The position numbers and the translations under genes were made by a program. 64,000 bases of DNA. Origin: Eledone cirrhosa (taxonomy: Eukaryota). The number at the start of each line of letters is the position of its first letter. Position 1 is the first letter of the stretch. This document shows, piece after piece, positions 7,208 to 10,200 of the stretch. The stretch lies in NCBI GenBank assembly GCA_964016885.1, contig OZ024741.1, positions 364,064,001 to 364,128,000 of the forward strand, in the 5' to 3' direction. The notes beneath the pieces were generated by a model. That model was given only the letters and a program-made list of their open reading frames with translations, did no database searches and was not told where the DNA came from.

Positions 7208-10200
7208 ATGGAAAAATTTGAACAGGAACAAAACAGAGAGGCAGTACAACGAATGTTATTAATTTCACGCTCTGGGGAGTGGGGTGGTGGTGGGGAACGA
7301 CGTTTCGCGGCATAAGCCCTTCCTCAGGTGAGAAGTGTGTGGGAACAGAGTTCAAAGGGTGTGTAGGGAGTGTGGAGAGACATATAGCGAAAGGAAACGG
7401 TGCGAATGAAATTAAAAATAAAATAAAAATAAAGCATGATCAAAATACAAGGAATGAAATAAAATTAAATATAAAGCATGATCAAAATAAACTGAAATTA
7501 AAAAGGGGGTAAAACAGGTGGTGGAAGGGTGTGGAGTATGTAGGGGTGGTGGCGGGTGGAGTGGGGAGAGGGAGACGGGTGTCCGAGCGGGGAGGGCTGA
7601 AGGTGGTGTGTGTGTGTAGGTGTACGTGTGTGTGTGTGCGTATGTGAAAGTAAGGGTTGGGGAAGAACGGGGTTGCATGTTCAGGAAGAGGTGTGTGTGT
7701 GTGGTGGGGGGGGGGGGGTTGTAGGTCGGAGTGTCTGTGCGTGTGTGGATAGAGGGGGGGAGAGGAATCAGGAGGCTGAGGGTGTAAATATGTGGTGGAA
7801 AGCACGTGTGTGTGGGTTTAAGTGTGTTGTGGGTGTAGGTGGCGTGTGGAGAAAAAAAATTTTTGGGGTGTGTGTGTGTGGGTGAGTTATATAGGTGATT
7901 CCGTAAGAGGATGGTTGAAAAGTTGGTAAAATCCTATGATGTTTAGTGGATTCCGTGGTGGTCAAGTTCCACATACGAGTATTCCATGAAGAGATGGTCG
8001 GAAGAGGAGAGATGTGGGGTGCGCGCGCAACAGGAAGTGGTCAAGCAGTGGGAGTGCTGTGTGTCTGTTTGTGCTGGGAGGTGGTCAGAGGCATAGCAGC
8101 AGTCAGTGGAATGGTAAAGGGGCGAGGATGGGTAGGTGTGAAAGTTGGAGTGAGGAGGGTGTGTGTGTGTATTAGTAGAGGTGTTAGTGGGATGAGTGAG
8201 TGTGGAGCGAGGGTGTAGGTGGAGCGGGGAGAGAAGGGTGTGTGTAGTTCTATGGAGGGAGTGTGGTGTACTGGTGTGTGTGTAGTTTGATGAAGGGGGT
8301 GTTAGTGGGTGTTAGTATACGGGAGGTGGGGAGGGGTTGAATGCAGGTGTGAGTGGGGGTTAGTGGTGGTAGGGTATGTAGAGTTAGTGGTGTACGAGGG
8401 TGTGTGGATACGTGTGCGTGGGGTTGGGGGTGTTAGTGATGTTAGTTGCGTGTGGGGTGGGTGGTGTAAGTGGGTGCGTGTGTTCGTGTGCTTGGGTCAG
8501 GGGGTGTTAGTGAGGTTAGTTGCGGGGTGGTGGGATGGAGGTGTGGGGGTGAGGGTTAGTGGTGGTAGTAGGGTGTGTGTTTAGTGTGAGCGCGTGTATA
8601 TATGTGCCGGTGGGTGTGTGCGTGTGATAAGGAGGGGAGGAGGAGAAGAAGGGAGGGATGTTAGTATGTTAGTTGGGGAAGGGTGGTCGGATGAGGGGTG
8701 GAGTGGAGGTGTTAGTATTGTTAGTTGTAGGGTGGGCCGGTGAAAAGGAGGGGTGTGTTAGTGGTGTTAGTGGGGGATAAGTGTGGGGGGAGGGGGCGGT
8801 CGAAGGCTAAAGGAATAAGGGTGGGGAGTTCAGGCCGGGGGGAGTGTGGGTCTGTAAGATGAAGATAGTTCTTTGTTCGACTCTAAGGCGATTGGCGGGT
8901 GTTCCGTGGCATTGGAGTAGGCCACAGACTGTGAGATGGCGTGCGGAATGTCCAGGGCCACCAAAGTGGCGGGCGATGGGGAACTACCACCGAGACGTAT
9001 ATCCCGGAGGTGCTCAGTGAATCGGTCCGCCAGGCGACGTCCCGTCTGTCCGATATAAGTCGTGCTGCACTCCGTGCAGCGAAGTCCCGTAGACTAGGTT
9101 GGAGGTGCAGCGGAAGGCATGCCGGACAGAGAGAGAGTGGCCGTTGGGGACCCTGGAAGGTGGTGGTGTTGGTGATGTGGGGACAGGTGTTGCGGCGGGC
9201 CTAGAACATGGAAAGGAACCGGGGGGGGGGAACAGAGCGTGGGTTAGGGGTAGGGAGCTGTGGACGAGGGAGGGTGCGGAGATTGCGTGCGCGTTTGAAG
9301 GAGGGGAGTGGTGGGTTGGGAAGATGTGGGAGGTGGATGGGTCGGACTGGAGGCGTCGGAAGAGGCGGCAGATGGTGCGGTGGAGGGTAAGGTGGAGGGG
9401 TGGTAGGTGATGGGGAAGGGGAGACGGTGGGTGGGTGTGCGGTGGCGTGGGGTGAGGGTGGTGGAGCGGGTGGACAGCACGGGCGCGGGTGAGAACGGTG
9501 TGGACGAGAGGGGGGGGGGGGTAACCTCTGCGGATGAAATGGCTGACTAGGGAAAGGGCTGGGACTCGAAGTCAGCATCTCCGGCTACAGAGGCGGCGGA
9601 TCCTGAGGAGTTGGGAGTAGGGAATGGAGTGTTTAGTGTGGGTGGGGATGGAAGAGGTGAAGTCGAGGTAAGAGTGGGAGTCGGTGGGTTTGAAGAAGGC
9701 GGAGGTGACGAAGGAGTGGTGGGAGGGGTCGAAGGCGACGGAGATGTCTAAGAAGTGGACGTGGGTGGTGGAGATAGAGGTGGTGAAGTGGAGGGAGGGG
9801 TGGAAGGAGCAGAAGAAGGAGAGAAAGGAGTCGAGCTGTTCTCGGGTGAGGGTCCGTGGCTCCGATACAGTCGTCAATGTAACGACCCGTACAGTTCGGG
9901 CGTGGGGCCGGTGTACTGGGCAAAGATTTGGGCCTCAACATGGCCAACAAAAAGGTTGGCATAGTTCGGGCCCATTCTTGTACCCATGGCTATCCCGTGA
10001 CCTGTTGGTAAAACTCACCCGAGAAGGAGAAACAATTGAGGGTGAGGACCAGCTTCGGCGAGGCGAAGGAGGGTGGGGGGTGGAGGGAATGGGGGAGGGG
10101 CGAAGGTCGAGGTAGTGTTTGAGGGCGCGTAAGCCGTCGGCGTGGGGGGATGACGGTATAGAGGGACTTGATGTCTAGGGTGAAGAGGAAGGGCTGTGGG

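Follow-up and report, generated by a model that had tools for sequence, protein, structure and literature searches.

A Penelope-like element (PLE) on the minus strand of a 64-kb window of the Eledone cirrhosa genome (the whole stretch of 64,000 nucleotides that was analysed) carries a dense run of ACUAAC hexamers behind its stop codon. We asked whether these sites are maintained for a function and, if so, what might read them.

A paired ACUAAC array occupies the start of the 3' UTR

The hexamer GTTAGT, ACUAAC in the element sense, is present in 16 exact copies within 8183-8771, all on a single strand, and together with an ACUAAU at 8171 makes 17 sites inside the 600 nt after the PLE stop codon. 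The first begins 35 nt past the stop (TAG, 8809-8807), the full heptamer UACUAAC is present at three (8311, 8660 and 8711), and the 3' UTR is 1.6 kb long, its first 640 nt being taken up by the array. An earlier sequence-only reading of this DNA had given the same sixteen hexamers, three heptamers and distance from the stop, all of which we recovered. The 17 sites resolve into seven pairs, with members 8-12 nt apart, and three singles, one of them private to the window copy; the six pairs at 8-10 nt reported earlier stand, to which must be added a seventh, formed by 8183 and the ACUAAU at 8171 with a spacing of 12 nt. At least seven pairs were obtained in only 4 of 20,000 random placements of 17 sites. 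The features of the element, all on the minus strand, are as follows.

7208..11316, minus: 5'-truncated, frameshifted, high-copy Neptune-type PLE flanked by (AT)n tracts (from sister-copy frames and a depth falling 5'-ward)
8807..11316, minus: remnant of an ORF for RT plus GIY-YIG, including a CX4CxxC linker and a CCHH motif; TAG stop at 8809-8807
8757..8771, minus: pair 1, ACUAAC-3 nt-ACUAAC
8711..8725, minus: pair 2, 3-nt spacer, UACUAAC as second site
8660..8673, minus: pair 3, 2-nt spacer (3 nt in older subfamilies), UACUAAC as second site
8555..8560, minus: unpaired site, lost by deletion in one young subfamily
8506..8520, minus: pair 4, with ACUAAU as first site in the oldest subfamily sampled
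8432..8446, minus: pair 5, product of a 74-bp duplication, missing from the oldest subfamily
8383..8388, minus: unpaired site, private to the window copy
8359..8364, minus: unpaired site, still ACUGAC in older lineages and a gain of the younger ones
8301..8316, minus: pair 6, 4-nt spacer, UACUAAC as first site
8171..8188, minus: pair 7, ACUAAC-6 nt-ACUAAU
7492..7504, minus: pyrimidine tract and CAG, putative 3' splice site-like, about 670 nt beyond the last motif, similar in 64 of 90 copies
7299..7327, minus: sequence-predicted minimal hammerhead (core CUGAnGA ... GAAAC-GUC), its core shared by 74 of 90 copies
7254..7264, minus: poly(A) signal position, one base short of AAUAAA in the window copy, AAUAAA in 79 of 90 copies

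The density of the hexamer was compared with dinucleotide shuffles of 8171-8804 (n = 500), the comparison that had been proposed for it; these contain 1.3 hexamers on average and never more than 5, against the 16 observed, and every UAA triplet of the array region (18 of 18) sits within ACUAA. By exact count ACUAAC is absent from the ORF region (8807-11316) and from 7208-8170, and the 64-kb window as a whole has 38 hexamers where 37.6 are expected. Since that total is at the chance level, the excess is local to the UTR array. Hexamers with one mismatch are no commoner in the spacers than in shuffles (7 versus 7.2), and there is thus no halo of decayed copies. The spacers do not form a simple tandem repeat, as had been observed before, yet this description overlooked a 74-bp duplication at 8387-8524 (82% match), the source of pair 5.

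Two other readings of the stretch were rejected. A coding role is contradicted by stops in all six frames, the longest run being 92 aa. Telomere repeats are made of CCCUAA or CCUAA units at a fixed period, and a tract derived from them does not agree with a C preceding CUAAC at 0 of 16 window sites, or with 11 CCUAAC against 1259 ACUAAC in 98 copies.

The array belongs to a Neptune-type element

Sister copies of the element have open frames of 822-828 aa, a single ORF in which RT is followed by a C-terminal GIY-YIG domain. These frames match the Pfam models RVT_1 (E 2.9e-4) and GIY-YIG (E 0.029) only weakly, neither passing Pfam's cut-offs, and have 508 homologues at E <= 1e-20, the closest 55% identical. 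A C-X4-C-X2-C linker and C, C, H and H residues are invariant in the alignment of copies (A1), and a CX2-5CxxC linker with a CCHH motif has been described for Neptune and Nematis elements (PMC8557442). By the description of linker and CCHH motif we provisionally classify the element as Neptune-type, with the linker shared with Nematis.

PLE terminal repeats typically carry minimal hammerhead ribozymes (PMC4209133), and the predicted hammerhead core of this family is followed by AAUAAA, putting the putative ribozyme upstream of the poly(A) signal. An Rfam search with the element returned no hammerhead match, only AT-repeat artefacts and one sub-threshold match, and a monomer fold was not obtained for the predicted core; neither a hammerhead match nor such a fold would be expected for minimal ribozymes (PMC4209133). 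The (AT)n on either side of the window copy corresponds to microsatellite insertion, hammerhead-bearing upstream repeats at three loci (L034, L039 and L043) to a partial tandem (pLTR) structure, and depth drops toward the 5' end of the element. The assignment to a PLE, the position in its 3' UTR and the recognition of a STAR-type motif had all been correct in the sequence-only reading.

The window contains further remnants on its minus strand. A 338-aa open frame at 32080-33093 (FFNPPF ... LLDKHFP ... CNC..CPL) has no significant Pfam match, and stretches of it presumably resemble the RT-endonuclease linker of another PLE clade. A disrupted LINE, in which an endonuclease and an RT are followed by a PHD finger, lies at 38740-41853, and an integrase core with DUF7047 in a GC-rich stretch at 60588-62247 is likely part of an LTR retrotransposon.

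The array is spread through the family

With the array region as query, 2,510 genomic candidates were found, and the 40 that were scored are all at least 95% identical to it. A pattern of two pairs gave 4,049 genomic matches, compared with 55 for the reversed control, and all of the 100 pattern matches listed look by eye like members of the family of the window element. These matches are unevenly divided between strands (2,532 forward and 1,517 reverse), which is unexpected for dispersed copies, and one or more motif-bearing satellite arrays may be the source of the excess.

For the family alignment, copies recruited by the motif pattern were excluded; it contains 114 copies, 30 recruited through the array and 84 through the endonuclease region, 5 of 103 and 9 of 25 candidates having been dropped because they were truncated, gapped or heavily deleted. 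Between 11 and 17 sites are present in 112 of the 114, and 4-7 pairs in 111, with identities to the window copy as low as 78%; conservation in other copies, one of the checks suggested earlier, is therefore found. Several of the dropped copies are without most or all of the array, and as far as seen their breakpoints differ.

A start-to-start spacing of 9 nt is the commonest (325 of 587 pairs), and distances are 8-12 nt within pairs and mostly 44-52 nt between the first pairs. The spacers inside pairs vary in length and sequence from pair to pair, and shift between subfamilies. Six pairs are present in the oldest subfamily, a duplication brought the number to seven, and a young and successful subfamily, which lost one pair and one single site by deletion, is back at six. 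A short derivative with the first two pairs only, a divergent 3' end and an altered hammerhead region was seen at one locus (L282, G000:C1:118693400-118696100). Low-depth pieces of 7208-11316, up to 99% identical, are also present in runs from three other organisms (X5, X6 and X7), and may represent contamination, close relatives or transfer; they were left out of all comparisons.

Paired sites are retained and single sites turn over

In an initial test, inherited changes (those in at least three copies) were seen in 2 of 96 motif columns and in 74 of 507 spacer columns, and by block permutation the 2 changed motif columns compare with 13.4 +/- 2.8, none of 20,000 draws being so low. The three columns flanking the motifs on either side are also fairly conserved (6 of 76 changed versus 2 of 96, P 0.14), and hexamers of C and A only are likewise quiet, with 1-2 inherited changes in 36-54 columns for 5 of 10 such hexamers. 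As these controls weakened the initial test, changes were polarised on a tree and matched by base. The initial test also scored only sites held by the majority, and so missed those lost early; the tree test added the minority-held sites.

On the tree, no inherited break is seen at the 14 paired sites, where the rate in UTR columns of matching base predicts 26.2 (P 4e-12, or P 4e-7 when scaled by the lower terminal-branch rate), these P values being indicative only because the alignment is of low complexity and the tree was built from the same columns. Single sites show 2 inherited breaks against 3.7 expected, the counts of one site being blurred by alignment. The sole inherited change inside a pair replaces C by U at the Y position of ACUAAY. 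By comparison, 19 older copies have ACUAAC at one single site where younger ones have ACUCAC, another single site (8359) went from ACUGAC to ACUAAC, and a third is ACUAUC, ACUAAC or ACUAAA.

Private changes are also scarcer in motifs (68 versus 121 expected), a sign that the low-complexity spacers contribute alignment noise. In an independent run (X1), 0 of 20 visible polymorphic positions fall in the 96 shared motif bases, where about 3 are expected; 27 of 30 polymorphic positions were visible in this count and 3 were hidden. Two RAD-seq runs (X8 and X9) yielded 142 and 156 reads, most of them partial and uninformative. The comparison of copies indicates that the pairs are kept by purifying selection while unpaired sites turn over. 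A decayed minisatellite unique to the window copy, raised earlier as an alternative origin, is excluded by the family-wide occurrence of the array and by this selection on its pairs.

Relatives do not have the pairs

The genome contains another abundant family of Neptune-like elements, with an endonuclease about 57% identical and a shorter UTR, and none of its 39 copies has a pair. One ACUAAU is located near +70 after the stop in 21 of these 39 (loci L051-L106), and a pyrimidine tract with CAG lies upstream of the hammerhead as in the family of the window element. Among metagenome relatives, 33 of 80 loci reach at least 250 nt beyond the endonuclease, and these have a pair in 0 of 33 and three sites at most. 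A 14-fold repeat at one metagenome locus (L229) was considered as a similar array and is flanking satellite instead. Because neither the sister family nor the metagenome relatives have pairs, the array is lineage-specific and dispensable for Neptune elements generally; the related PLE families, where conservation had been worth seeking, do not share it. We interpret these sequence comparisons as showing an innovation of one lineage.

A host STAR protein is a candidate reader

In 98 copies the first base of the motif is A in 1,366 sites (1259 + 107), against C in 11 (CCUAAC), and the last base is C or U. The pattern under apparent selection, ACUAAY, fits the specificity of STAR proteins. The consensus for QKI is a NACUAAY core plus a UAAY half-site (PMC2697983), and such a core with a neighbouring half-site is present on the sense strand in each of the seven pairs of the window copy. 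For How, ACUAAC is the best site, with A preferred at the first position and NCUGAC about eightfold weaker, and in the germ stem cells and spermatogonia of flies it occupies CUAAC sites in 3' UTRs, where it can raise or lower stability (PMC12868882).

The significance of the close spacing is less simple. In RAI14, tandem ACUAAC sites 9 nt apart, 34 and 43 nt before the acceptor, are both required for capture of QKI (PMC13004596), but a double motif 7 nt apart was bound by How-STAR no more tightly than a lone motif, and the How study states a requirement of more than 15 nt for dimers (PMC12868882). The How result in vitro means that a close pair may not equal the footprint of one dimer, and thus the earlier proposal that one dimer bridges each pair is favoured by RAI14 and questioned by How. 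The gaps between the first pairs, mostly 44-52 nt, could be spanned by a dimer. The array region is predicted to be single-stranded, with an MFE of -3.8 kcal/mol over 640 nt, weaker than in 20 of 20 shuffles, and a centroid structure that is almost unpaired.

On the host side, exons for Qua1 and KH domains lie 42 kb apart on one contig and one strand, the gene being represented by these exons. The KH piece matches GLD-1 (E 7e-17) and QKI (8e-16) better than SF1 (4e-8), and both exons are far closer to GLD-1/QKI than to SF1 or Sam68. These matches indicate that the host encodes a STAR protein of the QKI/How/GLD-1 type.

Weighing the possible roles of the array

The reading that we tentatively place first, at somewhat short of an even balance, is that the paired ACUAAY motifs are docking sites for a host STAR protein that acts in the cytoplasm of germ cells on the stability of the element RNA and on when it is translated. 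The protein would bind and coat the array, with close pairing raising its occupancy, and once bound would either stabilise the RNA or keep it in store, and would set when germ cells translate it. The cytoplasmic reading gains from the position of the predicted hammerhead: cleavage there, upstream of the poly(A) signal, could remove the tail and leave the RNA tailless; a STAR protein might help such an RNA. More new germline copies would result, and lineages that break pairs would leave fewer descendants. As QKI bound to the dengue 4 3' UTR lowers translation (PMC5959249), the effect of the array could have either sign. Localisation, translational control and circularisation, the roles suggested by the sequence-only reading, fit these observations alike. 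The more specific proposal of a multivalent landing pad for Quaking/How, needed for the germline success of the lineage and with selection acting on pairing and not on singles, is possible but doubtful.

The same kind of protein could act in the nucleus, where QKI/How on branch-point-like sites would exclude SF1 and keep the RNA unspliced or nuclear, providing a full-length template. The RAI14 sites, which capture QKI and thereby keep out SF1 and prevent the spliceosome from assembling (PMC13004596), are a precedent, introns are retained by PLEs through retrotransposition (PMC8557442), and the acceptor-like tract at 7504-7492 recurs in most copies. However, this sole common acceptor-like tract is far downstream of the last motif, distances from a site to the next AG run from 13 to 273 nt without pattern, unlike those in RAI14, and the single donor-like match in the element is within the ORF, and we regard a nuclear step as rather unlikely. 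Taken jointly, the cytoplasmic and nuclear STAR readings are probable. Use of the sites as working SF1/U2 branch points, an alternative set for an intron in the 3' region, has in its favour the three UACUAAC of the window copy and a U before 432 of 1553 sites, but half of the sites have a C in front, they are not consistently followed by a pyrimidine tract and AG, no donor-like match is present in the UTR, and one branch point suffices for a real intron where seven pairs are found here; it is the least probable of the readings considered.

Recognition need not involve a STAR protein, and the sites could mark the RNA for selection in cis, being recognised by the RT-endonuclease that the element encodes or by a different RNA-binding protein of the host. 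A selected, lineage-specific 3' UTR motif would suit cis-recognition, and its family-specific distribution would suit co-evolution with the element's own protein. We think this distinctly unlikely, given that an exact ACUAAY match with C/U tolerance at the last base requires no new protein, and that in the sole PLE studied in vitro, a Poseidon and not a Neptune element, the minimal RNA is the first 172 nt of the ORF and does not come from the 3' UTR (PMC11167929). At the DNA level, the motif could bind a transcription factor and act as an enhancer when the 3' region forms a pseudo-LTR upstream of the next copy; PLE promoters are in the pLTR (PMC8557442), and at L039 the whole array precedes the next ORF. 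The sites are nevertheless on one strand, at spacings that vary over 8-12 nt and keep no fixed helical phase, and the upstream pLTR of L034 has a hammerhead but no array, leaving this very improbable. A neutral by-product, in which a C/A-rich UTR gained short duplications by slippage and a single larger one, all too young to have decayed, could draw on the structure of pairs 1, 3 and 6, which read as 8-10-bp tandem duplications, on the 74-bp origin of pair 5, on the youth of the family (at least 78% identity), and on the slow flanking columns and C/A hexamers. It conflicts with the complete retention of pairs (0 inherited breaks versus 26 expected) while singles turn over, with one-mismatch copies not being in excess, and with seven different spacers separating identical hexamers; we consider it largely refuted, with a correspondingly small probability.

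Comparison with known systems

Neptune-clade PLEs resemble this element in the RT and GIY-YIG ORF, CX2-5CxxC linker, CCHH motif, minimal hammerhead, microsatellite insertion and partial tandems, but a selected array of paired ACUAAY in a 3' UTR of 1.4-1.6 kb is unmentioned in the portions consulted of the papers describing them (PMC8557442, PMC4209133). The QKI response element and RAI14 intron 10 share the hexamer, the tolerance at the last base and the 9-nt spacing (PMC2697983, PMC13004596). The array differs in having full cores in both halves, six or seven times over, as putative binding sites, and in its location in a retrotransposon 3' UTR, whereas the RAI14 pair is beside a host 3' splice site (PMC13004596). 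Sites for How(S) in 3' UTRs of the Drosophila germline are similar in having ACUAAC as the best site in 3' UTRs of germ cells, although the mRNAs examined in that work are host ones with one or few sites, and a close double site gave no gain in affinity (PMC12868882). Dengue virus 4 is another parasitic RNA with a QKI site in its 3' UTR, but this single site restricts the virus, whereas the PLE appears to keep many pairs by selection (PMC5959249). SAFB on adenosine-rich L1 RNA provides a further case of an autonomous retrotransposon tuned to a host RNA-binding protein, through diffuse coding composition and a different protein, in contrast to the discrete paired UTR hexamers of the PLE (PMC10901741).

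A literature search, mostly of titles and the openings of abstracts, returned no report of an ACUAAC array in a PLE or other retrotransposon, and no host RNA-binding partner for any Penelope-like RNA; such motifs are likewise unmentioned in the parts consulted of PMC11167929 and bioRxiv 10.64898/2026.07.22.740005. A consensus containing the array may sit unremarked in supplements or repeat libraries. The PLE clade and the motif are known; what is new is the array of paired STAR-type sites, apparently under selection, in a retrotransposon 3' UTR.

Little is known of how Penelope-like RNAs are handled in cells, and the family described here provides a candidate that can be named and has evolution in its favour, together with natural variants that carry mutant sites and could serve as controls. 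The retention of pairs and not of singles is a natural experiment on STAR recognition, and bears on the dispute over close ACUAAC sites. Transcribed copies may also draw on the host pool of STAR protein, or alter splicing from sense intronic insertions, and the roughly 4,000 two-pair matches in the genome make such effects on host splicing or protein availability testable.
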